DNA of 64,000 nucleotides from Leptolyngbyaceae cyanobacterium (GTDB taxonomy: Bacteria > Cyanobacteriota > Cyanobacteriia > Phormidesmidales > Phormidesmidaceae), in assembly GCA_965263355.1 (NCBI GenBank), contig CBDHHL010000032.1, positions 544,001-608,000 on the forward strand, in the 5' to 3' direction. The notes beneath the pieces are model-generated. The model did no database searches and had not been told where the DNA came from. It saw only the letters and a list, made by a program, of their open reading frames with translations. This document shows positions 557 to 32,640 of the stretch, one piece after another (the first letter of the stretch is position 1; each line of letters begins with the position of its first letter). The position numbers and the translations under genes are program-made.

Positions 557-1334
557 AGGACTTTGACTGCAAGCCATTACAGTAATTTGTAATTTCTTTA
601 GGAGCCTGGTTATGGGTTTGCAAATACCCCTCTAGCCAATGGCAGCTGTCGGCCAACAGTTTATCCAATAGTTGAGCCTGATCACCACTCACATCCAAAC
701 GCCATAACAGTACTGTTTCCACAGGCGGACGGTCTTATCTTCACTGGCCGATGCTAATTTTTGACCATTCGGTGAAAATGCTAGGGAGGTCACAGGGCCT
801 TCATGGCCGTTTAGGGTAGTTAGCAAGCCCCGTTGTTTCCCTAGCTGCCAGATTTGAATCTGACTATTTTCTAGCCCTACAGCCAAGTGCTGTCCGTTAG
901 GGCTAAAGGCTACGCTCAGCACTTGAGTATCTTTGAAATCAAATCGATCAAGCTGGATTCCATCTGTGTGCCAGACCCTGGCGCTGCCATCGGCACTGGC
1001 CGATGCAATCATTTGGCCATCATTACTGACAGTAGTATCCCAGATAATCCCTTCATGGGCATCCAGGCGATTGCGCTCTCGGATCCAAAACACAGCTTGC
1101 TGTAAAGCCGTCACCACCAGGTCGTCAGAAAATGATTGATTGGGATTAACCGCCGCTTCATTTTTGAGTGCAATCCCTGCTTTCATCGCTTCTAAAAGGG
1201 CCTCAAATGGCTGGTGGGAGCCAAACAGAGCTTCAGAGGTTTCTGTCTGGGCCAAAATTGTTTGAGACTCAGCGTCCTGTCTTGCTTCCTGAGCAATTTC
1301 CTTTTGTTTATCAGCGCGTGTTCTTTTTTGGTTG
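549..1334 (-). pseudogene. WD40-repeat protein remnant, 5' end cut by IS66 and internal out-of-frame deletion
   Basis: About three WD40 repeats (GHEGPVTSLAFSPNGQKLASASEDKTVRLW). At ~718 another frame resumes with TVLLWRLD...LLADSCHWLEGYLQT, typical of cyanobacterial WD40 C-termini, and stops at 549. Confidence 0.8.
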
Positions 1335-2896
1335 GTAACTACTTAGGCTGTGGCAGAGGTGATTGAGGATTTCCAGAGAACAAATCGACAAGCGCGTCCC
1401 ACACATTGTGCCCTTGTTTTCGTAAAGTAGCCAAATAGCCACGAATACGACAGAACTGTTTAGCCCCATCCTCAGATCGGAAGCATCCCGAGATTTTCTG
1501 TTTCAGTTTCATCATGCGGAGGTCACGCTCGGCTTGATTGTTGTCAAAGGGAATCGAGAAATCGTACATAAAGCCGAGTACCGAGACCTTTTGATTACGT
1601 AAGCGCTTCAGTAGGTTAAGCGGGGGTGGACGTTTCGGTCGTCCCCGTTTTTTGGGTTTTGACGGAGGGGGCATTGGGTTTTGGGCAAACCCCTGCTCTA
1701 AAATGGCGTCATATCGGGACTCAAATGCGGCCAAGTCCTCAATCGATACCCTCTGTTTCCCCTGGGCTTTAAGGCTTTCGAGGTGAGTATGAATCGTCAC
1801 CAATAGCAGACTTAGTTGAAAGGCCCACCACTGACCATAACGTTCTAGCATGTACTGCAGTTCTCTCAAATGATGGGCATTACACAGAAAATGCTCACAG
1901 TCATACAGTGGGTAACTCTTCCAACCATCATGCACGGCCTTACCCTCAACCTCTGGTAACACTCCCATCGCCTCCATGGCCACTTGCCCCCGTTTGGGAT
2001 GGACAAAGTAGTAGGTCAACCCATTGGTTGAGGCTACATGCAACCACCACAGACGCTGATTGACCCGCAGACTGGTCTCATCAAAGTGAACAACCTCACT
2101 GGCCTCTATGGCTTGCTTAATCGTTGCCTCTATCGGCCCTAGATGCTCAAAGCACTGGTCACGGGTGGTGTAAAACGTTCCGTCTGAAACGCTCACGTTC
2201 ATTAAGTCCTTCAACACCTCACAGGCTCGATGCGACGGTAACAGTTGTCCCTCCATCAGGTACACCATCATGGCCTTGAGACGAGGACCATACTGCACAA
2301 CCGTGCTGGCCTCAGCAGGAAAGCTCCCTTGAGTGGACTGACCACATTTCGGGCCACGTTTTACCTCGACTTGATGCTCAGTGACCAATGACTCTATCGG
2401 TCGAATGTCAACTACTTGACGAGCTAACACCTCATCGACAGGGACACTCACTAACGACTCTCCACACCCTGAACACACCGTCACCTCATGGGGAGTCACA
2501 AAATCCGGATCGCTGCTCCATTCAAGGGTATGACCGCGATGACCAGGCTGACCACCCGATGACTTGTCGCTTTTACGCCGTAAGCTCTTAGTGCGTTTCC
2601 CAAAGCCATCACCTGACGGTGGTTTATGACTATTTCGACTGGTTTTGCCTAAGCGGCCTTTGAGCTCACTGACTTGGGTTTCTACCTTGGTGAGACGTTC
2701 CATCAACTGAGTCACCAAACTCACCACAGCCTCTTCTCCTTCCGCATACACTGCACGGATCTCTGCTTCGCTCAGCTGAATTGGTGGGTGTTGCTTGCTC
2801 ACTGGTCACCTACCTGGAACCTGACCATCAGTTAGGATATTTCATTTGCATAACAATCTTTGGAAAATCTCTATTTTTTTAAGCCTAAGTAGTTAC
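1335..2896 (-). mobile_element. IS66-family insertion sequence (single-ORF, ISBst12-like)
   Basis: Perfect 15-bp terminal inverted repeats GTAACTACTTAGGCT (1335-1349) and AGCCTAAGTAGTTAC (2882-2896) enclose the transposase ORF. Confidence 0.93.
1339..2802 (-). CDS. IS66-family transposase
   Basis: SRNSHKPPSGD, GGQPGHRG, CxxC, HFDET, WLHV, CNAHHLREL and FDNNQAERDLR motifs. Confidence 0.95.
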   Translation of the reverse strand: MSKQHPPIQLSEAEIRAVYAEGEEAVVSLVTQLMERLTKVETQVSELKGRLGKTSRNSHKPPSGDGFGKRTKSLRRKSDKSSGGQPGHRGHTLEWSSDPDFVTPHEVTVCSGCGESLVSVPVDEVLARQVVDIRPIESLVTEHQVEVKRGPKCGQSTQGSFPAEASTVVQYGPRLKAMMVYLMEGQLLPSHRACEVLKDLMNVSVSDGTFYTTRDQCFEHLGPIEATIKQAIEASEVVHFDETSLRVNQRLWWLHVASTNGLTYYFVHPKRGQVAMEAMGVLPEVEGKAVHDGWKSYPLYDCEHFLCNAHHLRELQYMLERYGQWWAFQLSLLLVTIHTHLESLKAQGKQRVSIEDLAAFESRYDAILEQGFAQNPMPPPSKPKKRGRPKRPPPLNLLKRLRNQKVSVLGFMYDFSIPFDNNQAERDLRMMKLKQKISGCFRSEDGAKQFCRIRGYLATLRKQGHNVWDALVDLFSGNPQSPLPQPK

Positions 2897-3200: not shown

Positions 3201-3890
3201 CTAAACCAAATCAGGATCTATCCCCAACGCCCTTAACTTCTCCGCCAGTCGGTCCGCCCGCGCCTTTTCTTGTTCTACTCTTTCCTCGGGTGTTCTCAAC
3301 CGTTGCCCAGTCTCGTTATACCAATACAACCATTCTCGCTCTCGGCCCAAGTAAGTTCCTCGTTCTCGGCCCAGACCCAACCCAATTTTAGGCAACCAAA
3401 CCGGATTTCCAGATAATGCTTCATATTCACCATCCACTAACTGATAAATCTCCAGGGGCTGACGCTTACGACGCGGGTGCCCATCTGGCAGATACACCGC
3501 ATAGTAGTCAACCTCCAACTCTGCATACAGTTTTTTCTTGCGTTCGTACTCACCACCATAGGTTTTCGAAACCACTTCTAAAGCCAGTGTTGGAGAAATA
3601 TTATCCTCTTCCCACATCACATAGCTCAGTCGCCCCCCTTCGCCAATGAATCGTTCTACACCCAAACTCAAAAAACCATCCGGCACCACCGCTGGCGCAC
3701 TGGGGTCAAAATAAATCCCCATATCTACCCCAAAAAACCAATCCTCACGCTCTGGCCAGATCATCGCCAAAATCGCTTCGAGTAAATTGGGAATCAAATT
3801 CTGTAACTCATTATCCACAGGCGTATCATCCGAGTCCGGTAACTCAGCAGAGGAGGGTAAGCATTGCTTTGGGTCAAACTTTAAAACCAT
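3201..3890 (-). CDS. Uma2 (DUF820) family putative endonuclease
   Basis: LPDSDDTPVDNELQ, VPDGFLSLG, LALEVVS and coiled C-terminal LRALGIDPD. Confidence 0.9.
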   Translation of the reverse strand: MVLKFDPKQCLPSSAELPDSDDTPVDNELQNLIPNLLEAILAMIWPEREDWFFGVDMGIYFDPSAPAVVPDGFLSLGVERFIGEGGRLSYVMWEEDNISPTLALEVVSKTYGGEYERKKKLYAELEVDYYAVYLPDGHPRRKRQPLEIYQLVDGEYEALSGNPVWLPKIGLGLGRERGTYLGREREWLYWYNETGQRLRTPEERVEQEKARADRLAEKLRALGIDPDLV

Positions 3891-3990
3891 GGCTACCGCA
3901 AGCTAGACCAGTACAACTATTCTAGCAGTTGGCTGATGTAGATGATAAATCATGGCCAACTTGAAACCTGTAGATTCTCTGTTTAATCGT

Positions 3991-4437
3991 TTAGCCTCGA
4001 ATAACAACCACATCCCGTTTGCCAGACGTCATCGCTAACTCTGTTGTGGTGCGTTCTGCAATTGGCCCAATATTAGAACGCTGATCAAAAATCACTAGCC
4101 AACCCAAGCTTAACCCTAAACCTGCCAGATAACGATCCAACTGCTCTAATCCCTGACTAATCGGATCCGGTCGCCCCTCTCGCCACACCTTCAACTCCAT
4201 CGCCAGTGTCGTTGTTCCGTATCGTAAACATAGGTCCATCCGGTCTGACCCAATGGCATATTCTCTCTCTAGTGTGCCGCCACCTTCGACTCCGCTCAGG
4301 TCGAGACCATTCACCACTCGATGTAAAAACGCCATCAATACTAGATGGGGCGCAATCTCATGGTATGGAGCACTTTTTAACAAAGGTTGTCCATGTTGTC
4401 GCCAAAAGCTAAGAAACGCCTGTAATAGCGTCGCAAT
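3991..4437 (-). pseudogene. C-terminal remnant of AAA-like ATPase with PD-(D/E)xK-like tail
   Basis: AFLSFWRQHGQPLLKSAPYHEIAPHLVLMAFLHRVVNG...EREYAIGSDRMDL...ELKVW...EQLDRYL. Preceded directly by an in-frame stop, with no Walker A region. Confidence 0.75.
4282..4308. repeat. Small palindromic dispersed repeat inserted in frame
   Basis: ACC-TTCGACTCCGCTCAGGTCGAG-ACC. Removing 24 bp restores VNGGGTLEREY. Confidence 0.7.
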
Positions 4438-4470
4438 CTATATACCTTTAAAACCGACTCAGGATCTAAA

Positions 4471-5316
4471 CTAGGACCCCCAAACTGAATATCGGCAAAC
4501 ACCATTGGAGTGTAACCCTGTCTGGTTTAAGGCAAGCTTCTGATCAAATGCATTGTTTTTAGTCTTAAAACGTTGATACAGTTTTGTTTCGTTCAGCGTT
4601 AGAGTCAGGCGGTCGTCTTCCCAAGAAAGCTGACCAGCACCACCCCGCCCCAGATTATTGCAGTAATGGTAAATCTTACGGCAAAAGAGCTTCGTTGGGC
4701 CACATTCATAGAGCGATAGCTTACCGTAGGCATCAAAGCTCATATAGCTCATCTGATAGCTTTTATTCCAGGTATTTACTTGAAGCGCATCTACATGGTC
4801 AATAAAATAGCCATTAAACGGCATGAGTCCGACAGTTAGGGTTATTAGCAGAGAGAATGTAACAATGCTATTAACCTTGACCTGGTGAGGAAACTGAGAA
4901 ATTGCAACTATAATCCACAAAATATCAAGGGCAACAATCAAAAAAAATAGTCGTATAGGACCATGAAATCCACCACCGTGTAGAAAGGATAGGGGCAGTG
5001 ACAAAGCCATGCCAACTACGGCCAAAAGAGCAAAACCCCAGATTTTAAGCCATCGCCATCGGACCTGCTTCAAGGACGTAACCGGAAAGATAAAACTGGC
5101 ACAGCAAATGAATAACAGCAAGATCCAAAATCCAAAAAAGAAAAGGCCATGGAGAAATACAGCAACTGGATAAGGTCCTGGTAAAATGCCATTGATAAAA
5201 AGCCAATGCCATGGCAAGTATGCAAAGAACAATAATAGCCCTGGCTGACCAACTCTTTGAAGCAAGGTTTGTCTGTTCCAGTGGTGATAGAAATATCGTA
5301 ATAGCTGCATTATCAA
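4471..5316 (-). CDS. Hypothetical multi-pass membrane protein
   Basis: 281 aa ORF with about 5 hydrophobic segments followed by a Cys-containing soluble domain. Confidence 0.6.
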   Translation of the reverse strand: MIMQLLRYFYHHWNRQTLLQRVGQPGLLLFFAYLPWHWLFINGILPGPYPVAVFLHGLFFFGFWILLLFICCASFIFPVTSLKQVRWRWLKIWGFALLAVVGMALSLPLSFLHGGGFHGPIRLFFLIVALDILWIIVAISQFPHQVKVNSIVTFSLLITLTVGLMPFNGYFIDHVDALQVNTWNKSYQMSYMSFDAYGKLSLYECGPTKLFCRKIYHYCNNLGRGGAGQLSWEDDRLTLTLNETKLYQRFKTKNNAFDQKLALNQTGLHSNGVCRYSVWGS

Positions 5317-5580
5317 GGGGGACGAGGATGATGGATATATATCCTTGAATTCTTGATGGGGCTATCTAATTTCGAAAAAAATCGACAAGTTTACCCAAAC
5401 CATATAATCCTGGCAGCCTCCTAAATCCTCGAACTCTGCTGACTTTGAGTTCCGAAGCCCCCAGAATTTTGGGTGGGGACCTTTGCACGAGTGTCATATT
5501 TAAAAAGTTCTTGTTTCTTGTGTAAATTACTTTGCCTGCCTACTGATCCTGTAACATAGCCAGCATTCTGAAGGCCCTCT

Positions 5581-6666
5581 TTAGTCCTCTCTTTTCTTTG
5601 CCAAAATCTCTTCAATCCATACTTGATGCTTTTCATTCTCAAAGCGTTTCAAATAGGCTAGGGCAATTTGTCCCACCGCTGGGTTCTCTTCAATCGCGTC
5701 TAACAGTCTGTGAGTTGTACGTTGTAATATCGCTCGCTCAATCTGTTGATGGGTTGCCACCGGTACCAGGATGGCGGCCAAAACGACCCCGATCCCGGCT
5801 GGAATCATTGGCATCAACCAGCCCAGTAAAAATCCTCCATAGACACCACTGGTTAACCCGGTCAGCAACGCCATGATCAATAACGCCACCTCAAGGGTTG
5901 CTCTCGCCAATAGATGCCCGCCACACCGCCCGCCGTGGTCCAGACCAAAATCCAGACAATCTCCTGCCATTCCTGCCAGCTTTTGAATAAAGGCCGACCG
6001 TCAAGGGCTGAGCGCAACAACATACTAACGGTATTGGCATGGACCGTTACCCCAGCCATGGAAACGGTTTCGCGGGTGGTATAGGGGGTAATCAACACAT
6101 TGTTGACGGTGGAGGCGACGGAGCCGATTAAGACGATGCGATCGCGAATCACCTCCTCAGGCACCTCTCCATTCAGCACCTGGGTGAGAGAAAAAGTGGG
6201 AAACTGCGATCGCACCCTCACATAGTTCAGCATCACCTGATAACCATTGGCATCGGCCCGAATATAGCTGCCCTCATAGGGGCTTAATGGCTTCAGCATG
6301 GCCTGCCCCAAACGCACCGCATTGGCTGGACGGTTAACTGCCTCAAAAGCAATCCCTTCCTGTTCTAAATAGGCCAGCACCAGCTTGGATGAAAAGCTAA
6401 ACAATAGGGTGCCCGGTTCCGGCTCGATGGACAACAACGCCCGTCGGATAGACCCATCATTCTATATCTGCTTGCTCTAGCCGTGCCATGGTTTTGACAC
6501 TCAAGCTAGACTTACCCATCTGGCGGGCCGTCAGAATATAGCAAAACTCCCCCCGACAGACCGCATCATAGAGCGCACTATCCGCCTGCCGTTGCACATA
6601 GCTAAGAGCCTGGGTGGGCAAACTCCCCCCCACTTGATACTGAAATCCAGGCTGTTGTTCCGTCAT
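5581..6666 (-). pseudogene. AAA-like(AAA_35)-CHASE2 protein, internally deleted and frameshifted
   Basis: 6666-6457 encodes YQVGGSLP...YVQRQAD...ARQMGKSSL (P-loop). It switches frame into DGSIRRALL...RDRIVLIG...GVTVHANTVS (CHASE2). A second shift near 5885 leads to the last transmembrane (TM) helices. Confidence 0.8.
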
Positions 6667-6681
6667 ATCTATTGTTCTAAA

Positions 6682-9600
6682 TTAGACGCTTCGATAGCGA
6701 TAGGTCATATACCCCACCGCACCACCGGTAAGCCCCCAAGCCATTAGTGCCGGTACCCAAGGTATCCAAATAGCTGACCACACCATAGAACCATAACAAG
6801 CGATGGTTAAAACGCCGATCGAGCCAGCGCTGGCGAGCAACAATGGCCGCAGTCGCACACATCGCCAAAAGATCAAGCCGCCAACACCAGACCACAGTAA
6901 AATCCAGCCCGATTCTTCCACAAATGACCACCAGCGGATGAGAGGGCGTTCCTCTAAGGCCGCATTGATCAGTTGGCTAATCATTTGTCCATGGACATAA
7001 ACTCCAGGAATAGAATCGCCATAAGGGGTATTGAAATCATCGGAGTTGCGATCGCTAAAATCTGTATAGCCAATTAGGACAATGCGATCGCGAATCAGCG
7101 CAGGATCAACCTTGTCCTGAATGACAGCTTCTAAAGAAACCTGCTGAGCAAAATCCTTTAGCCGAGAACCCCGTCCTTGGGACTCTGGATCGTCATAGGT
7201 GCGAAAGTTGATCAGAGTTTGATAGTCTATCCAACTACTCCAGCCTAGATTTTCGGTCATCGCACTATAGGCAGTGCCGTTACTATCAATATTGGGTACT
7301 ACAACAGTATTAAAGGAAATAACACCGACTGTTTCTGCATCGCTAGTATTTTCATAGGTAATCCCTTCGGTCTCAAGATACGTCTTAGCCAACAACAAAC
7401 TAAAGGACTCCTCAGTGAGACAAGAACTATCGCCACTAACCTGCTGAGTTAAATAGTGACGGCGCACAATGTTGCCACCATCCTGGAGGAAATTAGCAAA
7501 ACCAACCCGAGTCTCGGGCATTTCGTTGCCGATATCGCCAACCTGTTCGTTAGCCTGTTTGTCAGCTGTCTGACAAATACCAAACAAATTATCCATCCAA
7601 GCCAAATCGTTGGCCAAAGCCCCCTTAGCCGGAAAATCACGGAAAAAGTCTAACCCAATCAAACGAGCATCATGGCGATTGAGAACTCTAATAGCCTCTG
7701 AAAGTGCATTCTCAGGAATCGTACCAATACCAGGGGTATAACGACCATCAATCATCTGTTGCCGTAGCCACTCGCCACTGGGGAAATCTACCTTAACAAT
7801 TAGCAGCCGCTCATCCTGTTCAGTTTCATTGGGCCGCCACCGCAGGAACTGGTCATAAGCGCGAGTTTCTAGGGGCTGAAAACCACCCAATAGTCTGATG
7901 ACAGAAACTGCTAAGGCACTGACTACCGTCGCTAATGCCACGGATCGAGCTTTGATTTTCTTAAATGGCAAGGCCTGACTGGCCTGAATATAAGCTTTTT
8001 GCAGGGCAGTAACCGATGGTGTTTTGTCCTGGGCCTGCTCTAACCAACGGACTGATTCTGCCAGGTCATTCCCCCGTAGTAAAAAACTCTCATCCCGCTG
8101 GGCAGCGTCCCATTCAGCGGCTTTGACTAACAGGCGTGTGTGCGATCGCACATGATGCGGATCGCTTTCCAAGGTGCGAAACAACTCGCCAAAGTTCACC
8201 AGAAAGTCACCGTCATGTCGTCGAAAATCACTCCAGGGTAATGACTCGATCCCTTCCGGCAGTGTAGATTTCACCACAGCCCGATAGATCACCGGTAAGA
8301 TACGTTTTTGCTGGGACCGGGCATAGGCTAGCTGATCTAGACAGGCCTGACACCGGACAGCACTGGGCGACAAAATAAACAGAACAGTTTCAGCATTATC
8401 AATCAGCAGGTGAGTATCGTCTAGTCGGTCAGTCTCACCTGCCGAACCGTCCGGTGATAACCAGGCACTTTTGCCTTGAACTAACAACGTTTCATTAAGC
8501 CGATGAGAAAAATCATAATCATCAATATGGTGAATAAAAAAGACCCCCAGGGTTTGATCGGGAGACTGCCTTTGACTGGCATCCAAAAACGCTAGCTGTA
8601 GGGGCAATGCGCCGTTTGGCTGACGATTCTTAGCGGTTTGAGCCCAGGCTAAATAGGTATCCTGTATCTGACGCTGTAGGAGCAAACTCGGGTTTTGTTG
8701 TTGTCGTTCCCACTTAAGTGCTCGCACCAAAAGACGTTTGTGTTGATTATGGTATGAAGCCTCTCTCTGGATCGCCTGCAACAGCTCTGCCATATCTTTT
8801 TCTAAATCGATAGAGGCTTGATTGTCAGTGAGATTAATAAATTGAATCTTACGAATGGTTTCTGGTATCAGTGCTAAATTCACATCCTCCACCAGCATAG
8901 GAATCACCCGTTTGTTTAGGTCTAGCGCTTGATCAATTTCCTGTTGACAATAAACTGAGGCAAGGGATGCCTGGGAAATCAGATAGACAACATTGTCAGC
9001 CTCTTCCAGACCCCGCTGGATAGCAACTTCAAAGTCTTCACCCATACGGATATCCACCGTACTGGTCCAAACTGTCACACCAGCTTGTAGTAAGTGATAG
9101 CGAACAATTTCCTTTGTGGTTAAATCTTCTTCGGCACAGGAGATAAAGACCTGGGTCATGCCACCGTCGGCAGCCTTGATACTTTCTGTAATAAACTCTG
9201 CTTGCACCAGGTTCGGTTTACAGGGCAGTTGCTCCTTAGTAAATTCCGTCTGCAGCCAAGTTTGCGCCCGCAGTCGTTCCTCTCCCATCAGTAAGTAAGT
9301 GGCTTGACGTTGGTGACGCTCCCAGGCGAGGGCACTAATCAAGAGTTCAGTGTGCTGATGGACATAGTCTTCATGCCGATGACACAGCTCTATCAGTCCA
9401 TTAATGGCAGTGTCTAAATCATCGATGCCTGGACGGGCGTTGATCCAATTGATCCGACCAATGTCAGGGGGCATATTGGGGAAACTCGAATGTTTCCCCT
9501 TGGCTTTATAGATTTTCCAATGATCCGGACTGTCTGAAGGATTGCGAGCTTTCCAGGTGGAATAGCCAATTTCTTCCACCTGCAAAATGGGGATAATTCG

Positions 9601-11166
9601 CTTGTTGTATTTCAGTGCCAGGGAAATTTCCTTCGCACAGTAGGGCGAGTTAATGGAGTGAGGGCTGATGATAAATATAAAATTGTGGCTTTTTTCGATG
9701 CCGTCATTGATTTGTGCCTGGAAGTCTACGCCTAGGGGAATATCATTTTGATCAAACCAGACCTGAAACCCGTGGCGATTGAGCTGTTGACACAGATCAG
9801 TGGCAAAGGCTTTACTATCGATGCGACCATAGGAAATAAAAGCATCATAGAACTGATTAATACCTTGACTGGCCTGGATATAGGCGGTGTGCAAATCGGT
9901 GGGAGAACTGCCCGATGGACTGGGTTCCGATAGCCAGGCTTGGGCCATGGCAAAGGCATCGGACCTGAGTAAAAACTTGCGATCGCGATCCTGACGTTCC
10001 CAGGCCAATGCCTTTACCAACAGACGTTTATGTTGGTCCACATAGTCTGCCGAGGTCCTGAGAGTGCGAATAAGCTTATCTATAGCCTGATCAAAGTGAC
10101 TATCAGACGCTAGGGACGAAAAATCAATAAACTGCAACGCGCGCAAGTCGGTGGGCAATGTTGCCATATCCATGGACTGCACCAGCAGTGGAATGATCCG
10201 CTTATGGTAGCGACGAGCATAGGCGCATTCCTGTTGACAATAGCTTGACGCTAACGCATTAGGAGACAGCAATAAAACAATATTGTCGGTTTTTTCAATA
10301 CCCCGATTGATAGCGACCTGAAAGTCTTCAGCGGTGGGAATGTCTACGGTATTTACCCAAACCGTTACCCCCTCACGCATCATGCGCTTACGGACCTTCT
10401 CCTGAATGGCCATATCCTCTTTACTGTAGGATATAAAAACTTGAGTCATCTGGTCATTGGCAGCCTTCAGACTTTCCGTAATAAATTCGCACTGTAAGTC
10501 AGTGGGGATACAGGGCGGTTGTTTGTCTTTAAAGCGAATGTTTAACCATTGTGCTGCCTTCGCCAATTTCTCAGTATCTGTTAACAAATAGTTGGCCTGA
10601 CGCTGCTGACGCTGCCAGCTGAGAGATTGTAGCAACAGCTGTGTATGTTGGTGCACATAGGGGTGATATTGGGTCAGCATGGTTTGTAATCCAGCCATGC
10701 CTGTCTCAAAGTTATCTATCCCCTCACGCAAGTACACCCAGTCAATTTTTCGAATCTCAGGGTGCATATTGGGAAAACTGCTGTGCATTCCCTTTTCTTG
10801 GAGGGCATGCCAGTCGCCTGTATCGGCATCCGGAGTAAGCTGTTGCCAGGTTTCGTAGCTGATTTCCTCAATATGCAACAGTGGAATAATGCGCTTACTA
10901 TGGGTCAGCGCTAGCTCGATTTCCCGAGTACAGTAAGGGGAATTAACAGAATAGGGAGAAATAATAAAGAGAAAATTATCTGCATTCTCAATGGCATCCT
11001 CAATCTGATTTTGATACCCCATCCCCTGAGGACTATGCTCAAAATCAACCCAGACCTCTAACCCTGCCTCAACGAGGTGATCATAGATCTGCTTGGTAAA
11101 CAAACGGCTGTCTGTCCTGCCATAAGAAATAAAGACATCCTGCAGAAAAGAAGGAGGGGGTGTCAT
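6682..11166 (-). CDS. Multi-TIR (5x) + CHASE2 membrane protein
   Basis: Four FIS(Y/C)...S-x-YC-x-x-E TIR domains plus a degenerate fifth. These are followed by a TM segment, CHASE2 (AYDQFLRWRP, IGLDFFRD, RIVLIG, PGVYVHGQMISQL) and 3 C-terminal TM helices. Confidence 0.9.
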   Translation of the reverse strand: MTPPPSFLQDVFISYGRTDSRLFTKQIYDHLVEAGLEVWVDFEHSPQGMGYQNQIEDAIENADNFLFIISPYSVNSPYCTREIELALTHSKRIIPLLHIEEISYETWQQLTPDADTGDWHALQEKGMHSSFPNMHPEIRKIDWVYLREGIDNFETGMAGLQTMLTQYHPYVHQHTQLLLQSLSWQRQQRQANYLLTDTEKLAKAAQWLNIRFKDKQPPCIPTDLQCEFITESLKAANDQMTQVFISYSKEDMAIQEKVRKRMMREGVTVWVNTVDIPTAEDFQVAINRGIEKTDNIVLLLSPNALASSYCQQECAYARRYHKRIIPLLVQSMDMATLPTDLRALQFIDFSSLASDSHFDQAIDKLIRTLRTSADYVDQHKRLLVKALAWERQDRDRKFLLRSDAFAMAQAWLSEPSPSGSSPTDLHTAYIQASQGINQFYDAFISYGRIDSKAFATDLCQQLNRHGFQVWFDQNDIPLGVDFQAQINDGIEKSHNFIFIISPHSINSPYCAKEISLALKYNKRIIPILQVEEIGYSTWKARNPSDSPDHWKIYKAKGKHSSFPNMPPDIGRINWINARPGIDDLDTAINGLIELCHRHEDYVHQHTELLISALAWERHQRQATYLLMGEERLRAQTWLQTEFTKEQLPCKPNLVQAEFITESIKAADGGMTQVFISCAEEDLTTKEIVRYHLLQAGVTVWTSTVDIRMGEDFEVAIQRGLEEADNVVYLISQASLASVYCQQEIDQALDLNKRVIPMLVEDVNLALIPETIRKIQFINLTDNQASIDLEKDMAELLQAIQREASYHNQHKRLLVRALKWERQQQNPSLLLQRQIQDTYLAWAQTAKNRQPNGALPLQLAFLDASQRQSPDQTLGVFFIHHIDDYDFSHRLNETLLVQGKSAWLSPDGSAGETDRLDDTHLLIDNAETVLFILSPSAVRCQACLDQLAYARSQQKRILPVIYRAVVKSTLPEGIESLPWSDFRRHDGDFLVNFGELFRTLESDPHHVRSHTRLLVKAAEWDAAQRDESFLLRGNDLAESVRWLEQAQDKTPSVTALQKAYIQASQALPFKKIKARSVALATVVSALAVSVIRLLGGFQPLETRAYDQFLRWRPNETEQDERLLIVKVDFPSGEWLRQQMIDGRYTPGIGTIPENALSEAIRVLNRHDARLIGLDFFRDFPAKGALANDLAWMDNLFGICQTADKQANEQVGDIGNEMPETRVGFANFLQDGGNIVRRHYLTQQVSGDSSCLTEESFSLLLAKTYLETEGITYENTSDAETVGVISFNTVVVPNIDSNGTAYSAMTENLGWSSWIDYQTLINFRTYDDPESQGRGSRLKDFAQQVSLEAVIQDKVDPALIRDRIVLIGYTDFSDRNSDDFNTPYGDSIPGVYVHGQMISQLINAALEERPLIRWWSFVEESGWILLWSGVGGLIFWRCVRLRPLLLASAGSIGVLTIACYGSMVWSAIWIPWVPALMAWGLTGGAVGYMTYRYRSV

Positions 11167-11209
11167 AAATATTAGATGCCTACTAAGGGCCTAGACTGGA
11201 TAATGAGGC

Positions 11210-12403
11210 TCAGAAACCATAGCTCCAACGGGCACGATATCCCCGTGCATCGATATGGGTAAAGACGGATGCGCTTGCCAGTCCGCCGCGATCTCGCCAC
11301 CAAGGTTCTAACTTCCGGTTTACGTCCGGTGGAGAAACACCCTGAACGACAAAATCAACCGCATCTCCAGAAAGATGACGAGAACGACTAGCGCCACCTG
11401 CTCGACGGTTTGAAGCGGGATCACGATACCAGGAGTTAACCGTAATGGGACGTCCTCCCAAATAATCCCGTACTTCTTCCATAACCTCGGCAATTTTGAT
11501 AATACCGTCGACTACAGTGTCATCCACAGGAATACGATTGCCATTTTTTGTTGCTTCGGCCCAGCTAAAGTGACCATCCGTCAGGATCGGATCGCCTAGA
11601 TAAACCGTCCCTAGTTTGGGGACGGTAATGGATCGACCGCGATCCCGTTCAGCGATCTTCGTTTCTGGTTCAACCGGCGGGTCCTGGGGCTTGTTGTCAG
11701 CGTCCGTACCCTCTAACTGAATATGCTGGGCAAAAACATACCAATCAACGCGATCATTTTGCCCCATCAGCATCCCGTCGGGGATCCGGACTTTTACATG
11801 GTTTGACTTGTCCGGTTCATCACTGAGTAACTGCAACCGCGTACCTGCACTGACTAATATTTTGTCAGTGTCCGCCAGTTGAAAGCTCTGTTTTGGACTC
11901 ACCTTAAATAAGGTATCTGCCAATACAAGCATCTCGGTGGACCCTTTGGGATTACCGAGATCAATCAACTGCTGCGACTGCATATAGCGCATAATAGCTG
12001 CCGCACCGATGCGAGGCGTTTTTGGCTTGGCTATGTTAGTGCCCCCCCAAACCCAAGTAGACGCTTGCCCAGCACCGTCTCTAAACCCGTGCCATAGGTC
12101 AACGCCCCACAACAGCGCCCCTAGGGTGCGGGTCTTCGCCTGATGGAATTTTTTGGCAATCAGAGCATCGATTACCTGACGTTCAAACTGAGCGGGCTCA
12201 CGAAAGTTCCACTCGCTATAGTGCAAAATTCCCACAAACCACCAGGGCACACTAGTGGCTTTTTCCACAGCTTCGTAGTGCGATCGCAATTGCACCATGC
12301 GACCCACAATTCCCCTCACGGTAGGCTCCGCATCTGGCAGCAGCTCACAACCCTCAAATGCTGACTTATACTCTGGCTCAAGTTTTTTTAGAGTCAAATC
12401 CAT
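11210..12403 (-). CDS. Peptidoglycan hydrolase: lysozyme-like N-terminus + peptidase M15A (D-Ala-D-Ala metallopeptidase) C-terminus
   Basis: C-terminal SWYR..N..GGASRSRHLSGDAVD...FTHIDARG has intact H/D/H Zn ligands. N-terminal YEAVEKATSVPWWFVGILHYSE is lysozyme-family-like. Confidence 0.85.
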   Translation of the reverse strand: MDLTLKKLEPEYKSAFEGCELLPDAEPTVRGIVGRMVQLRSHYEAVEKATSVPWWFVGILHYSEWNFREPAQFERQVIDALIAKKFHQAKTRTLGALLWGVDLWHGFRDGAGQASTWVWGGTNIAKPKTPRIGAAAIMRYMQSQQLIDLGNPKGSTEMLVLADTLFKVSPKQSFQLADTDKILVSAGTRLQLLSDEPDKSNHVKVRIPDGMLMGQNDRVDWYVFAQHIQLEGTDADNKPQDPPVEPETKIAERDRGRSITVPKLGTVYLGDPILTDGHFSWAEATKNGNRIPVDDTVVDGIIKIAEVMEEVRDYLGGRPITVNSWYRDPASNRRAGGASRSRHLSGDAVDFVVQGVSPPDVNRKLEPWWRDRGGLASASVFTHIDARGYRARWSYGF

Positions 12404-12807
12404 GGAGCTAGTAGATGAAACAACAGAGATAAATAGCAGCCAAGAGAACTTAAATAGAATCCACAGGAGGTGCTACAAGCAATAAGCAATTGAATACCAG
12501 CAATCTCACTGACAACAACCAACGCTAAGACTCATTTAATTACCTACATCAGCCCATACCTTTAGCAATAGTTACAAAGCCTAGCCAATGCAATGAACCG
12601 ATAACATTTATAGAAAATTTATGCTAGCTCAAATAATAATGAAGAATTTATACTTTAGCGATGGTGCCCAGATAAAACCAACAAGATAAATTGTTCGTAA
12701 GTTAATTTTTATAAATCTAAGAGTTAGTTTACAAAGCTAAAGCGTGTACCTTTGAGTTGCGTTTTAGCTAAAAAGCTTGTCCTTGACTCGCATCTAATCA
12801 AAATAAA

Positions 12808-14337
12808 ATGGCCAAGAAAAGTTCTTACAACGATTATCTTAAGCAAACCCTAGGAGGGTTAATTGATAGGCTTGATATTTCAGAGTTACGTAAGGAATTT
12901 CTCAAAAATCGCTGGCTAGATCAGGTGATGTGGCTAGAAGGAAAGGCCACTAAAGAGCGGGATAGACACTACAAGCTGCGTTTGGTAACTATCATTGGCG
13001 GTGTGATTGTTCCAGTCATGGTAGGCCTAAACCTTGAAGGTCCGCTCGAAAAGCAGCTTAAGTATGCCGCCCTTGGGCTAAGTACAATAGTGGCTATTTC
13101 CGCTGCTGTCGAAGAATTCTTTTTGCCGAGTGAGAAGTACCGCAATTATCGTAGTACGGCAGAAAGCATGAAAATTGAGGGTTGGCAGTTTATGCAATTG
13201 GCAGGCCCTTATCGTAAATTCAAGGTTCATTCAGACGCCTATAAGATATTTGCCCAACGGGTTGAAGCCTATATTCAAAAAGATGTAGAAGGGTTCATTG
13301 CCCGTTTAGAAGAGAAACAGGAGGAAAGTAAGGAGGACGCTGATGAGGCGGCCAATAACGTTGAACAGACCCTTATGAGTCTCAATCAACAGTTAGAGGA
13401 AGAACGGGCGCAGCGTTTGGAGTTAGAGCGTGCACGTTTGGCTGAACAACAAGCTAGCAGTCCATCACCGACCCTGGATGATGGAGGTGGTTATTCTGGT
13501 TCCCTGATGGATATTCAGATGCCTCCATCTACTGATGAGGGAGATTTTGAGGAAAGCTTACCCCAGGAAAGCCGCCTGACTGAACCGTTGGCTGGTGTGC
13601 AGTCCCTGATGTCATCACAACCAACGGCTAGCCGAACCCGTGAAGTTTCCAGTAGAACAATTAAGACATCTAGTAGCCTCCCTCCCTTAGGTCAATATGC
13701 CCTGGAATGGGAGGAAACGGTTGACTTTAACGCGCTAAAAACAATTTTGACTGAGCAGAATAGTACTGGCACCCAGACCAATGGAGGGGCTAGTGGCGCT
13801 GAACCTCAGTTAACTACACCTGATGAAGTTTCTCAAATCTTGGAATGTCCGTTAGAAGACTGCAAAGTCTATCTGCCAGGCGTTTTACTGGCGATGCAAA
13901 AGTACGACATCTATGACAAGTCCGTATTGATTGGTCTATTAGCCACCATTCGCATTGAGACTGGCGGTTTCAAACCGGTCCATGAATGGGGAGGAGAAAG
14001 CTACTGGAAACGCTACGAAGATCGAGCAGATTTGGGTAATGTTAACCCTGGTGATGGCGTGAAATACCATGGCCGTGGCTACATTCAGCTTACAGGACGG
14101 GCTAATTACCATGACTATGGTAAGAAGCTGGGTGTGGATCTTGAAAATAATCCAGATTTAGCCATGGATCCTGAAATATCAGCTCAAGTTCTGGCCTGCT
14201 ACTTCAAAGAGCGTGGTGTGGCAACGGCGGCCCGTGAAAACGATTGGCGACGCGTACGCAAGTTAGTTAATGGTGGTTACCACGGCTGGGATGTGTTTTC
14301 AAGATATGTTGAGCGGGCTCAGGCTCGATTGGCATAA
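12808..14337 (+). CDS. DUF4231 (SLATT-like, 2 TM) domain fused to GH19 lysozyme/chitinase-like domain
   Basis: N-terminal RWLDQVMWLE...two TM...YRSTAESMKIEGWQF. Then a coiled/low-complexity linker. C-terminal ATIRIETGGF...YEDRADLGN...GDGVKYHGRGYIQLTGRANY...VNGG. Confidence 0.88.
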   Translation: MAKKSSYNDYLKQTLGGLIDRLDISELRKEFLKNRWLDQVMWLEGKATKERDRHYKLRLVTIIGGVIVPVMVGLNLEGPLEKQLKYAALGLSTIVAISAAVEEFFLPSEKYRNYRSTAESMKIEGWQFMQLAGPYRKFKVHSDAYKIFAQRVEAYIQKDVEGFIARLEEKQEESKEDADEAANNVEQTLMSLNQQLEEERAQRLELERARLAEQQASSPSPTLDDGGGYSGSLMDIQMPPSTDEGDFEESLPQESRLTEPLAGVQSLMSSQPTASRTREVSSRTIKTSSSLPPLGQYALEWEETVDFNALKTILTEQNSTGTQTNGGASGAEPQLTTPDEVSQILECPLEDCKVYLPGVLLAMQKYDIYDKSVLIGLLATIRIETGGFKPVHEWGGESYWKRYEDRADLGNVNPGDGVKYHGRGYIQLTGRANYHDYGKKLGVDLENNPDLAMDPEISAQVLACYFKERGVATAARENDWRRVRKLVNGGYHGWDVFSRYVERAQARLA

Positions 14338-14662
14338 ACTTGACATAAATCCAAGAAGATGTTATTAGCCAAGATGTTACGAGGCCCGAGTTTGATTGCA
14401 TCAATAACTAATGCTCTAAAGGCAACGATAGATTATTAGTCAAATGCGAGCCAGGCATAGCAACTGCATAGTGCTTGTGGTGCTTGTAACGGTATTGGAT
14501 TCTATGATTTTGTGCGTATACTTTGTTCACACCCCTAACTAAAATTAGATCGCTTTATCTATAAATTTGGACGGATTCTACAGGATAAGGGTATTTTGGG
14601 GTGTAAGTAAGTTAAACAATCCACCCAGACCTGTCGGTCACCTTTGTTAAGAGAGATACGAA

Positions 14663-15454
14663 ATGCCCAAAACTTCAGCTGACGAACTTGTTGAACATAG
14701 GTTTTCTAATGGGCAGCTGGCCAAAATACTCAAGGTGGCTGACAGTACTGGTTATAAAAAAGCATTATCAATTGTTGGCTTACAGGGGCCGACACCTACA
14801 TTGTTGGTGATTGGTGGAGCTAGCAATATGACGCCTGAAAGTCAGGCAAAGCTAATTCAATTCTTTAATAATGCATTAGCAATCTTGTCAGAAAGATTAG
14901 GGATTACCGTATTAGACGGTGGCACTGATGCTGGGGTGATCCATATGATGGGGCAAGCGCGTTATCACGTCAGCGGTCAGTTTAATCTTGTTGGAGTTGC
15001 CCCGCTAAATAGGGTTATTTTTCCAGTTGATGAGATGCCTTTACCAGCCTCGGATGATGAAAACTATCCTCCAGTAGAATTGGAACCCCATCACACCCAC
15101 TTTTTTCTAGTTCCTGGTGAAAACTGGGGTAGTGAGTCGCGATGGCTAGCAAGATTTTCGTCAGTTTTGGCCGGACATTTTCCCTCCATGACTTTACTAA
15201 TTAATGGAGGTCAGGTATCTCTCAAGGACTTGAAGCTCAATTTAGAGTTTGGTAGGCAAGTTACGATCATCGCTGGCAGTGGTCGTTTAGCAGATGCGGT
15301 GGCCGATACTATTAGCGGTGTAGCCCCCTCTGAAGATAAAACGATCCAGCATTTAGTAAACACCTATTATCCCAGCCAGTTGTCGGTCTTTAATCTCCTA
15401 TCAAGTTCATTAGATGACTTAAAGGCTCAATTGGACATCTATTTTGATTGCTAA
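14663..15454 (+). CDS. SLOG-superfamily protein (TRPM-like prokaryotic LSDAT)
   Basis: LLVIGGA, LDGGTDAGV, LVGVAP, LEPHHTHFFLVPG..WGSES, LLINGG and AGSGRLAD motifs. Confidence 0.85.
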   Translation: MPKTSADELVEHRFSNGQLAKILKVADSTGYKKALSIVGLQGPTPTLLVIGGASNMTPESQAKLIQFFNNALAILSERLGITVLDGGTDAGVIHMMGQARYHVSGQFNLVGVAPLNRVIFPVDEMPLPASDDENYPPVELEPHHTHFFLVPGENWGSESRWLARFSSVLAGHFPSMTLLINGGQVSLKDLKLNLEFGRQVTIIAGSGRLADAVADTISGVAPSEDKTIQHLVNTYYPSQLSVFNLLSSSLDDLKAQLDIYFDC

Positions 15455-15639
15455 TGGTTAGCAGATGGCTAGAGATTGCAGCCATTGGCAAATCTAGCTG
15501 GTTTAGCAATAGCATTCTCTGCCAGGGGAGCAGCAGTAATTGTTAAGAATTAGAATCAGCAATTGGCAAGGTATGCTAAAGTTCTATGGCAATGAATTGC
15601 TAAGCTTAGTGACAATCAGTTTTCGGTACGATACGCTCA

Positions 15640-15667
15640 CAGTTCAACTCGACCAGTTCAACTCGAC
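15640..15667 (+). repeat. 14-bp tandem duplication in rbp leader
   Basis: CAGTTCAACTCGAC x2. Confidence 0.85.
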
Positions 15668-15735
15668 TTCGATTTGATTACTAGAGGAGGGATCTCCCGT
15701 ATAACTCGTCGCATATTTAATCTAGGAGATTCTCT

Positions 15736-16008
15736 ATGTCCATTTATGTTGGAAATCTGTCCTATGATGCTACTCAGGAAGACATTAATGCTGTCTTTAC
15801 TGAGTATGGAGCAGTCCAGCGTGTCCATCTACCGACGGATCGTGAAACCGGTCGTCCCCGTGGTTTTGCCTTTGTAGAGATGTCTTCGGAAGATGAAGAG
15901 ACCGCTGCCATTGAGGCACTGGATGGTGCAGAGTGGATGGGTAGGGATCTACGGGTTAACAAGGCGCGCCCTCGTGAGCAGCGTGGCGGCGGTGGCGGTC
16001 GTTTTTAA
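15736..16008 (+). CDS. rbp: RRM RNA-binding protein (Rbp) with Gly-rich tail
   Basis: MSIYVGNL (RNP2) and RGFAFVEM (RNP1). Confidence 0.95.
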   Translation: MSIYVGNLSYDATQEDINAVFTEYGAVQRVHLPTDRETGRPRGFAFVEMSSEDEETAAIEALDGAEWMGRDLRVNKARPREQRGGGGGRF

Positions 16009-16108
16009 TTAAGAGTTCTGCCTAATTGGGGTTGTGTGCTTTGCACTTAGCTCTGGTCTATCATGGGGCAGTTGGTCTGCCCCATTTTTGTCGTTAAAGG
16101 AGATTACT

Positions 16109-16327
16109 ATGGCCCAGGTTATCCTTGGGGATGATGAAGGTATTGAGTCAGCGCTGCGAAGATTTAAGCGGAAGGTTGTACAAGCGGGCATTTTTTCAGA
16201 TATGAAAAAGCACCGCTATTTTGAGACACCTGCTGAGAAGCTAAAGCGCAAGGCGATCGCAAAGCATCGTCAAAAGCGTTGGAGCCGTAATCGCAGTAAC
16301 CGCAATAACAACAATAAAGACGGATAA
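16109..16327 (+). CDS. rpsU: 30S ribosomal protein S21
   Basis: [12 protein letters not shown]...RYFETP, with AAGGAG RBS before ATG 16109. Confidence 0.95.
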
Positions 16328-16372
16328 GGCTGACTAAACCTTCACAGGTTAGGGCTGACTAAACCTTCACAG
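16328..16372 (+). repeat. 20-bp direct repeat after rpsU stop
   Basis: GGCTGACTAAACCTTCACAG at 16328 and 16353. Confidence 0.85.
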
Positions 16373-16503
16373 ATATAGACATGTCCATCGTGACTGTTTT
16401 GCTTTGGAAGAAAATCAAGAAAAAATTATTGGTTTCAGTTTTGGTGTGGTTTAACTTTCCGGTTCTACCATCTTAATTGAAGTAATAGTCGCAATAATGA
16501 TAC

Positions 16504-31797: not shown

Positions 31798-32640
31798 ATG
31801 GTCCAATTGTCTTCACTAGATATAGAACTGCGGCCATTTTTGAAATGGGCTGGAGGCAAACGGCAATTGGTGCCTGAGTTATTGAAATATGTGCCGGATA
31901 CCTATGGTCAATACTATGAACCGTTTATCGGTGGTGGGGCATTGCTGCTGACGCTGCAGCCTGGGATAGCGATGATTAGCGATCGCAACCCAGAACTGAT
32001 CAACTGCTACCAAGTAGTCAAAGACTCCGTCGACGACCTAATCCACAACCTACAAAAGCATCGCAACGAAAAAGACTACTTTTACGAAGTCCGCAGCTGG
32101 GACCGTCAAACTGAATTTGCGACCAAAACCCCTGCTCAGCGGGCGGCACGCATCATTTTTCTGAATAAAACCTGCTATAACGGCCTCTTTCGTGTCAATT
32201 CCAAGGGGCAATTCAATGCCCCCTTTGGTCGCTATAAAAACCCTACTATTGCCGATAAAGCCGTTTTACGTAACGTCAGCGCCTACCTAAATCATGCCGA
32301 TGTTACTATCCGGCAAGCAGACTTTGCCATAGCCGTTGCCGAGGCAAACCAGAACGATTTTGTGTATTTTGATCCGCCCTACGATCCAGTGTCAACCACG
32401 GCATCATTTACCGGATATGATCGCCAAGGGTTTGATCGCACTGAGCAGCAGCGATTAAAAAACGTATTCGATCAGCTAACAACACGTGGCTGCAAAGTGC
32501 TACTGAGCAATGCCTATACAGACTTTATTCGGGCCCTTTATCAAGACTATCGCTGTGTACGCGTTAGCGCTACGCGGGCGATTAACTCAAACGCCACCAA
32601 ACGGGGCAAAGTGGATGAGATTTTAGTGATGAATTATTAA
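31798..32640 (+). CDS. dam: Dam/DpnM-type N6-adenine DNA methyltransferase (solitary)
   Basis: LKWAGGK, EPFIGGG, YNGLFRVN and DPPY. Confidence 0.9.
   Translation: MVQLSSLDIELRPFLKWAGGKRQLVPELLKYVPDTYGQYYEPFIGGGALLLTLQPGIAMISDRNPELINCYQVVKDSVDDLIHNLQKHRNEKDYFYEVRSWDRQTEFATKTPAQRAARIIFLNKTCYNGLFRVNSKGQFNAPFGRYKNPTIADKAVLRNVSAYLNHADVTIRQADFAIAVAEANQNDFVYFDPPYDPVSTTASFTGYDRQGFDRTEQQRLKNVFDQLTTRGCKVLLSNAYTDFIRALYQDYRCVRVSATRAINSNATKRGKVDEILVMNY

Follow-up and report, generated by a model that had tools for sequence, protein, structure and literature searches.

Pairs formed by a SLATT protein and an LSDAT protein, the kind of SLOG domain present in TRPM channels and in prokaryotes, were reportedly predicted by Burroughs et al. 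in 2015 (NAR 43:10633), and the literature searched offers no experiment on a pair of this kind. The 2015 work is cited in PMC7159879, PMC13143021 and PMC7306681. In Thoeris type VII, the TIR protein ThsB makes cyclic ADP-ribose (cADPR) and thereby activates the SLATT effector ThsH, and Thoeris type VIII has ThsI, which combines a CMP hydrolase with TPR; the main text of that study contains none of the words 'lysozyme', 'peptidoglycan' or 'CHASE' (10.64898/2025.12.03.692087). The SLOG domain of the TRPM2 channel binds ADP-ribose (ADPR) (10.1101/2021.01.06.425286), and a passage of PMC8195603 mentions CHASE2 only in another system. Among lysis enzymes, natural holin-endolysin fusions exist (PMC9527704), and Lys of Pseudomonas aeruginosa (PaGH19Lys), a GH19 endolysin of a cryptic prophage with the residue pair E51/E60, is linked to native lysis (PMC12329726). 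Here we analyse a locus of four neighbouring genes, encoding a multi-TIR CHASE2 receptor, a stand-alone SLOG protein, a SLATT-GH19 fusion and a second wall hydrolase, in a 64,000-nucleotide stretch (the window) of a marine filamentous-type cyanobacterium (Leptolyngbyaceae; assembly GCA_965263355.1, contig CBDHHL010000032.1, positions 544,001 to 608,000).

The constant core of this module is SLOG plus SLATT, to which the TIR receptor and the hydrolases are recurrent additions. With SLOG-SLATT pairs predicted earlier, what is new is the repeated fusion of endolysin domains to a SLATT effector. An earlier note on this DNA had known of no described system with this combination; the claim stands for the coupling to hydrolases and falls for TIR plus SLATT, known from Thoeris type VII. 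No description of SLATT-hydrolase fusions or of TIR-CHASE2 proteins was found in the literature searched; subscription papers and supplements (Burroughs 2015, Thoeris) may list such architectures.

Architecture of the four proteins

The four neighbouring genes are intact at the coordinates given in the earlier note and encode 1494, 397, 509 and 263 residues on strands -, -, + and + (Table 1); the 43-bp gap that the note placed between the M15 hydrolase gene and the TIR-CHASE2 gene is also correct. The families it named for searching, TIR_2, CHASE2, Peptidase_M15_3, DUF4231, Glyco_hydro_19 and LSDAT_prok, were all recovered above curated cut-offs; domain calls were made with Pfam models above these cut-offs, and SLATT_1 came from NCBIfam.

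The 509-residue protein joins a SLATT domain (NCBIfam SLATT_1, 99.8 bits against a cut-off of 41; DUF4231, E = 4e-29) to a GH19 domain (Glyco_hydro_19, E = 1.4e-07) through a long, acidic, low-complexity linker. The six best PDB matches of the GH19 domain are endolysins or phage-type lytic enzymes (9ms7, E = 5e-23), with chitinases ranking lower; it matches the endolysin family PHROG 181 (E = 3e-45), and E384 and E393, nine residues apart, align with the Glu pairs of endolysins. The SLATT domain matches PHROG 7395, a family of unknown function. No holin model matched the protein in Pfam, NCBIfam or PHROGs, a SLATT profile found no true relative among PDB sequences (a repeat protein and an ATP-grasp ligase were treated as chance matches), and a profile search of viral contigs returned no close relative. 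The SLATT domain consists of two hydrophobic helices separated by a 14-residue loop, and the protein has no signal peptide. Counted over 75 sequences, Lys and Arg together average 1.8 residues in the loop, compared with 4.9 in the flank preceding helix 1 and 4.2 in the flank following helix 2; given these basic outer flanks and the absence of a signal peptide, both ends of the SLATT domain, and the GH19 domain with them, are predicted to lie on the cytoplasmic side. A complex prediction with two SLATT domains and the SLOG protein scored 0.00 and gives no evidence either way.

The second hydrolase, which matches PHROG endolysin 894 and was modelled with a predicted local distance difference test (pLDDT) of 84.7, has three domains. 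Its M15 peptidase (Peptidase_M15_3, E = 3.6e-18) superposes on 1lbu in VIA-align with Z 10.4 and a root-mean-square deviation (rmsd) of 2.7 over 118 aligned residues, and a Foldseek search of the M15 model against the PDB gave nothing at E <= 0.001. Residues H343, D350 and H383, which we take to be zinc ligands, are invariant across 38 sequences. The SH3b-like domain resembles 9ovi (Z 7.0, rmsd 2.3, 66 aligned) and the N-terminal domain resembles MltE, 4hjy (Z 6.8, rmsd 3.1, 102 aligned); a Z of 6.8, to MltE and MltF, is middling, and many lysozyme-fold rows concur. The glutamate E64 is present in at least 90% of the M15-type homologues and absent from those of Nostocales. A hydrophobic N-terminus is lacking in 57 of 59 homologues, the other two having an extension upstream of the usual start. 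Among the 301 genomes of the unbiased sample described below, a lysozyme-SH3 query found a near-full match in G001 only.

Behind this constant lysozyme-SH3 start, the second hydrolase exchanges M15, C39 and an unnamed PHROG-endolysin domain. An unnamed domain in one relative (L026:12016-13362, residues 246-438), which has a His and a Ser-Ala-Gly-Cys motif and is common in phage proteins, is a probable uncharacterised wall peptidase. PHROGs groups the C-terminal domain of the Nostocales enzyme with endolysins; our guess that this domain is YkuD-like comes from a His/Cys motif, and the model of the whole enzyme has a pLDDT of 32.8. Between the two hydrolase genes of L026 (11534-11869) and of Nostocales relatives lies a conserved gene of 102-111 codons, without a match in Pfam, NCBIfam or PHROGs, whose product is possibly an inhibitor or adaptor.

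The receptor has TIR_2 in five stretches (E = 7e-109) and a CHASE2 domain (E = 3.6e-48). The architecture of five TIR domains plus CHASE2 in a membrane protein, as described earlier, is thus correct, except that the catalytic Glu is confined to TIR1 to TIR4 (E82, E313, E513 and E743) and TIR5 has Gln945. TIR_2 is the best model, and the NCBIfam model ThcB4 scores 135.9 bits, under its cut-off of 220. The 263-residue SLOG protein matches LSDAT_prok with 184.9 bits against a cut-off of 25.4 (E = 1.3e-54), its top PDB match is the N-terminal region of zebrafish-type TRPM2 (7aov, E = 1e-07), and its glycine motifs are invariant across 51 sequences; it is predicted to be a nucleotide sensor of the ADP-ribose type. 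Neither SIR2 nor ThsA matched in the locus with Pfam or PADLOC.

Linkage, fusions and cargo exchange in relatives

Relatives were studied in two sets: a biased set of 70 loci, one genome per species, found by scanning with the SLATT-GH19 protein and lying in many cases on short contigs, and an unbiased sample of 301 genomes spread over the cyanobacterial phylum, the centre genome G001 included. In the latter, membership of the TIR subfamily was set at E <= 1e-40 and LSDAT was counted above its cut-off. The co-occurrence of the four genes, proposed in the earlier note, is far above chance and persists in rearranged orders, and fusions join SLOG to SLATT and SLATT to M15.

In the unbiased sample, the SLATT subfamily and LSDAT occur in 23 genomes each and together in 21, in 18 of which they lie less than 2 kb apart. 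The TIR subfamily is present in ten genomes, all of which also hold SLOG or SLATT, and within 10 kb of them in six, where copy number and genome size, with kinship ignored, would predict 0.11. The close pairing in 18 of 21 genomes identifies SLOG-SLATT as the core, while the search for the TIR subfamily came up empty in 15 of the 25 genomes that hold SLOG or SLATT, and hydrolase-type fusions occur in only 4 of the 23 SLATT-positive genomes, which makes the lysis enzymes an add-on.

Among the 70 loci, SLOG was found in 39 and TIR in 34; SLATT is followed by GH19 or GH24 in 47, and 35 loci have a second hydrolase and 15 a TPR-S gene. All four components are present in 20 loci, 15 of Leptothoe/Adonisia type and 5 of Nostocales, in two gene orders. 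The 15 Leptothoe/Adonisia-type loci keep the gene order of the window, and 15 loci run on into rbp-rpsU-carB; conserved order and this flank, taken by themselves, could be plain synteny. The Nostocales loci carry on one strand CHAT, 3xTIR-CHASE2, DUF928, SLOG, SLATT-GH24, the small gene and the second hydrolase. In Coleofasciculus the row is TPR-S, SLOG, SLATT-GH19 and, in one case, an M15 gene; in Moorena, SLATT and 3xTIR-WD40 genes alternate; and loci of Pleurocapsa type and of Microcystis hold 3xTIR-WD40, TPR-S and SLATT. Since many linked TIR proteins of the same subfamily end in WD40, CHASE2 is not the fixed extracytoplasmic input that the earlier note had assumed.

Fusions link the components more directly. 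SLATT is part of 14 of the 18 long LSDAT proteins (TPR-S and WD40 of two each), and 6 of 33 long members of the window SLATT subfamily (more than 300 residues, picked by length among the 150 best subfamily representatives) are LSDAT-SLATT fusions. Protein P0260 is a SLATT-SH3-M15 fusion that shares 39% identity with the second hydrolase of the window in the SH3 domain and 67% in the M15 domain, and L062 encodes SLATT-SH3-GH24-PG-binding followed by the catalytic domain of the Nostocales second hydrolase. Among the 120 SLATT relatives listed (279-891 residues), 98 end in a hydrolase (GH19 in 70, GH24 in 28) and the remaining 22 have low-complexity tails only or are incomplete. More distant SLATT relatives end in C39, C39 plus GH19, C39 plus GH24, M15 or an NlpC/P60-like motif, and the C39 and NlpC cargo domains match PHROG endolysin families. 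Within the window subfamily, all recognisable globular domains seen after SLATT cut or bind peptidoglycan. In a quick tree, GH24 carriers fall inside the group with GH19, and those with C39 or NlpC make up a starred clade of their own, which implies repeated exchange or regain of the cargo. A row of SLOG, a patatin phospholipase and 3xTIR in G031 (L135:6985-11597) has no window-type SLATT; its patatin matches CBASS phospholipase effectors (E = 1.5e-49), a candidate effector swap in which patatin takes the place of SLATT.

Other arrangements were also recorded. In G001 a further TIR-SLOG-SLATT cluster, unrelated to the first and with another kind of TIR, sits amid transposase genes (L136:6262-9595). 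Stand-alone SLOG-SLATT pairs in L105 (5103-9587), L106 and L107, probably a single lineage, lie near opposite-strand NAD salvage genes (nicotinate phosphoribosyltransferase, nucleotidyltransferase, a Nudix-wHTH regulator and NAD synthase). The TPR-S proteins, which carry a TIR-like/hydrolase domain, stand beside SLATT, and some have N-terminal SLATT units. The module occurs in cultured, named strains such as Leptolyngbya sp. PCC 7375, Nostoc and Anabaena. By our assignment of growth forms, nearly all named fusion carriers are filamentous and named unicellular ones lack the enzyme. A link between the hydrolase fusion and filamentous growth is nevertheless weak, as the unicellular set is mostly one clade, P0101 comes under the name Cyanothece, and L044 and L062 have either no classification or an odd label.

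Proposed function and alternatives

The domain content, the intactness of the active sites, the linkage of the genes, the fusions and the exchange of cargo are directly established. Building on them, we propose that a signal derived from nicotinamide adenine dinucleotide (NAD) opens SLATT, which acts like a holin for the cell's own endolysins, and that the cell lyses. We assign this reading a probability of roughly 0.45. The multi-TIR receptor would cluster when its sensor is engaged, either CHASE2 outside the inner membrane or, in relatives, WD40, and the clustered TIR1 to TIR4 would cleave NAD+ to an ADP-ribose-type signal. Homology and the fusions suggest that the TRPM-like SLOG protein would bind this signal and switch on SLATT, which may then oligomerise and breach the inner membrane in the role of a holin. 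The tethered GH19 and the signal-less lysozyme-SH3b-M15 enzyme, cytoplasmic until the breach, would thereby gain access to the wall and cleave its glycan strands and stem peptides. Lysis within a filament would remove one cell and break the chain. The layout recalls holin-endolysin systems because two intact wall cutters are predicted to be cytoplasmic and one of them is tethered to a pore-type domain. The more detailed version, in which an ADP-ribose-type signal acts through the free-standing relative of the TRPM2 sensor, the tethered muramidase is released and a chosen cell is lysed to break the filament, either cutting off an infected cell or forming necridia and releasing hormogonia, is doubtful.

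Several observations weigh against the lytic proposal. The 70 loci were chosen by similarity to the SLATT-GH19 protein of the window and related genomes are not independent, nor does the expected TIR linkage take account of kinship. Besides the lack of TIR matches and the scarcity of hydrolase fusions given above, the TIR subfamily is unlinked in 4 of the 10 genomes carrying it. TIR1 of the window has drifted, with 60-76% identity to orthologues against 84% among the orthologues themselves. In 16 of 18 relatives the next gene after TIR-CHASE2 is a TPR gene (in the remaining two the locus ends there), and TIR-CHASE2 may serve a secretion module instead. The genes are divergent rather than a single operon. 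The SLATT helices are short, with about 15-16 hydrophobic residues, and the charge distribution is the single argument for the inferred topology. Premature lysis would help the host only if it came before phage assembly. Unlike typical anti-phage systems, the locus keeps a constant place next to rbp-rpsU-carB in 15 relatives, and PADLOC, run on 30 window open reading frames (7 + 23, not every one in the window), found no defence cluster nearby; its matches are scattered, generic and at least 16 kb distant, save a weak one on the Uma2 gene. The abortive-infection role suggested by the earlier note draws no support from the context.

With a housekeeping site and no defence island among the reading frames scanned, a developmental or envelope role fits as well as defence, and the same wiring could be non-lytic: SLATT would free the hydrolases locally for secretion, perhaps of the adjacent TPS-type proteins, or for remodelling of septum or filament, as in type 10 secretion. 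This rather unlikely alternative agrees with the fixed housekeeping position, where the locus keeps 71-93% identity across species, and with the TPS, ShlB, CHAT and DUF928/TPR genes that flank the module in Leptothoe-type and Nostocales loci; secretion without lysis by the holin/endolysin pair of ChiW/ChiX is documented (PMC9527704). TPS proteins, on the other hand, use their own Sec plus ShlB route, the Coleofasciculus and Moorena loci have the module without the TPS set, and the window genome has lost that set here. Known SLATT effectors kill (10.64898/2025.12.03.692087), and the replacement of SLATT by patatin in G031 also suggests killing.

It is less probable still that two modules are involved. 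SLOG, SLATT and the hydrolases would read another signal, such as ADP-ribose from NAD turnover or the product of the TIR-like domain of TPR-S, and TIR-CHASE2 would belong to a TPR/DUF928-CHAT-TPS unit with its TIR domains as scaffolds or NAD sinks. TIR-CHASE2 is indeed also part of a TPR/DUF928-CHAT-TPS secretion neighbourhood, with a TPR gene right behind it in most relatives and a TPS gene following it in 11, the TIR subfamily was not found in the 15 genomes noted above, TPR-S neighbours SLATT in 15 loci, and three stand-alone SLOG-SLATT pairs adjoin NAD salvage genes. Against this, the same TIR subfamily adjoins SLATT with either a CHASE2 or a WD40 end on several separate branches of the SLATT tree, every genome with the subfamily holds SLOG or SLATT, and G001 has the unrelated second TIR-SLOG-SLATT cluster. 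At this locus the window genome has lost the secretion genes and still keeps the four genes intact.

A third alternative, that the hydrolases act in the cytoplasm, where they would sense or process fragments of the wall or attack walled invaders entering the cell, with SLATT a mere anchor, is improbable. Both enzymes are predicted to be cytoplasmic and have SH3b-like wall-binding domains, and the lysozyme-like domain lacks its Glu in the Nostocales version; the GH19, GH24 and M15 active sites are nonetheless intact and match those of lysis enzymes for polymeric wall, and we know of no walled intracellular invader of these hosts. A chance neighbourhood or a domesticated prophage lysis cassette without shared function, which would account for the matches to phage endolysin families and for synteny among close relatives, is very improbable and already largely refuted, as the linkage persists across orders with the genes rearranged, fusions support it, host genes flank the locus and no close SLATT relative turned up in the viral contigs.

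If the lytic reading is correct, pores of the SLATT family can serve as nucleotide-controlled holins. Known TIR systems kill through NAD depletion, cleavage of macromolecules or membrane breach, and none that digests the cell's own wall was found in the literature searched. The locus would also provide named genes through which cyanobacteria, whose necridia have been described morphologically (PMC9415839), could kill single cells and break filaments in a controlled way, and its stand-alone LSDAT protein is a simple handle on the ligand of a bacterial relative of the TRPM2 sensor.

Flanking DNA and comparison with described systems

The divergent region between the two gene pairs is AT-rich, as noted earlier (34% guanine plus cytosine, GC), and in this it is ordinary, since the spacer between the SLATT and SLOG genes is also low (39%). 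A non-coding block at about 12592-12761, conserved in nine relatives in a DNA alignment of 10 sequences, is probably shared promoter or regulator-binding DNA. A promoter scan was at chance level (14 found, 16.2 expected), as was a terminator scan. The SLOG gene starts 325 bp past the end of the SLATT gene, and a shared transcript is not required. The GC content of the four genes (44-51%) resembles that of the window (47.6%) and bears no mark of recent arrival. The right flank consists of the host housekeeping genes rbp, rpsU and carB; PADLOC also reported an orphan Dam-like DNA methyltransferase elsewhere in the window (Table 1).

The left side is eroded. A broken hybrid gene spread over several frames, in which the first 69 codons of an AAA_35-type ATPase run into the second half of a CHASE2 membrane domain, lies 15 bp behind TIR-CHASE2, where relatives have TPR and TPS (filamentous haemagglutinin-type) genes. 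Its junction is present in public contigs of runs X1 and X3 and is not an assembly slip of the window alone. In G001 the TPR and TPS genes are followed by a 3xTIR-WD40 gene and a TrkA-domain gene, the window having instead the broken hybrid, small open reading frames, IS66 and a WD40 stump. This stump is 69-74% identical in DNA to the final part of the intact L134 gene, and its intact counterpart in G001 encodes a 3xTIR-WD40 protein of 1410 residues. The 281-residue membrane protein encoded at 4471-5316 matched nothing in Pfam, NCBIfam, PADLOC or the 70 related loci. The erosion and the drift of TIR1 suggest that the CHASE2 arm may have lost partners in the window genome, with the four genes intact. 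One public contig, possibly the source of the window DNA, covers 3800-16400 with a single letter differing, and another sample of that study yielded a contig that bridges 4756-7397. Window position 7512, in codon 1219 of the CHASE2-coding part, is T in the window and C in contigs of runs X1 and X3, which is a strain difference or a window error.

Table 1. Positions of the features discussed (window coordinates unless a locus is given).
Feature	Position	Strand	Basis or remark
Receptor: five TIR plus helical linker units, membrane helix, CHASE2, C-terminal membrane helices; 1494 residues	6682..11166	-	Pfam, alignment, hydropathy
TIR1	10762-11148	-	part of 1494-residue receptor
TIR2	10117-10452	-	part of 1494-residue receptor
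TIR3	9472-9855	-	part of 1494-residue receptor
TIR4	8827-9162	-	part of 1494-residue receptor
TIR5	8212-8556	-	part of 1494-residue receptor
Membrane helix of receptor	7900-7956	-	hydropathy
CHASE2	6874-7917	-	Pfam
Three-domain wall hydrolase, 397 residues, no signal peptide	11210..12403	-	Pfam, structure model, conservation
Lysozyme/lytic-transglycosylase-like fold, Glu64 at helix end	11963-12391	-	
SH3b-like domain	11708-11950	-	
M15 zinc peptidase, His343, Asp350, His383	11213-11587	-	
Divergent intergenic region	12404..12807		34% GC
SLATT_1/DUF4231, acidic linker and GH19, 509 residues	12808..14337	+	Pfam, NCBIfam
SLATT_1/DUF4231 two-helix membrane domain	12898-13305	+	
GH19 endolysin-type muramidase, C-terminal, Glu384 and Glu393	13813-14334	+	
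Stand-alone SLOG, LSDAT (TRPM-like) family, 263 residues	14663..15454	+	Pfam LSDAT_prok
Broken AAA_35/CHASE2 hybrid gene	5581..6666	-	Pfam, comparison with relatives
281-residue membrane protein	4471-5316	-	
130-residue open reading frame without family	3991-4383		
Uma2 gene	3201-3890		
IS66 transposase gene, intact-looking, beside WD40 stump	1339-2802		
WD40 fragment, remnant of second same-family TIR gene	579..1263	-	Pfam, DNA comparison
Orphan Dam-like DNA methyltransferase	31798-32640	+	PADLOC
TPR-S examples in relatives	L024:2546-5728, L056:4720-6942, L061:11201-13144		

Of the systems described, holin-endolysin and type 10 loci share with the present one a small membrane protein that neighbours, or is joined to, wall hydrolases from endolysin families (GH19, GH24, M15) lacking a signal peptide. 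They differ in that the membrane domain here is SLATT and of no holin family, the partners include a nucleotide sensor and TIR domains, and no prophage genes are adjacent. PaGH19Lys is likewise a GH19 muramidase kept by the host, and its two catalytic Glu have the same nine-residue spacing as E384 and E393 here; it is soluble and prophage-derived, whereas the enzyme of the window is tethered to SLATT. As in TRPM2 and ThsA, SLOG is predicted to sense an ADPR-type signal, but here the sensor and the pore are separate proteins, SIR2 is absent and the pore is unrelated to TRP channels. The predicted LSDAT-SLATT pairs agree with the locus in combining a stand-alone or fused LSDAT with a two-helix SLATT_1 effector, adjacent here and fused in relatives, and may lack the hydrolase fusion and the multi-TIR partner.

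The resemblance to Thoeris type VII lies in a TIR protein with catalytic Glu and a SLATT_1 gene 1.6 kb away, a likeness at the level of the SLATT domain. The TPR-S genes beside SLATT in relatives may, in addition, recall mixed operons of ThsH and ThsI, with ThsI as an effector. In place of the small TIR protein ThsB, the window has a five-TIR CHASE2 membrane receptor of 1494 residues; in place of a two-gene operon, divergent genes with a hydrolase gene between them; and it adds a separate LSDAT SLOG, a SLATT-muramidase fusion and a second wall hydrolase, away from known defence genes in the reading frames scanned. From Thoeris type I it differs in having a stand-alone LSDAT_prok SLOG instead of the SIR2-SLOG effector ThsA. 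The locus is thus best likened to Thoeris signalling with an LSDAT-SLATT receiver, and by layout and effector it stands outside types I and VII.

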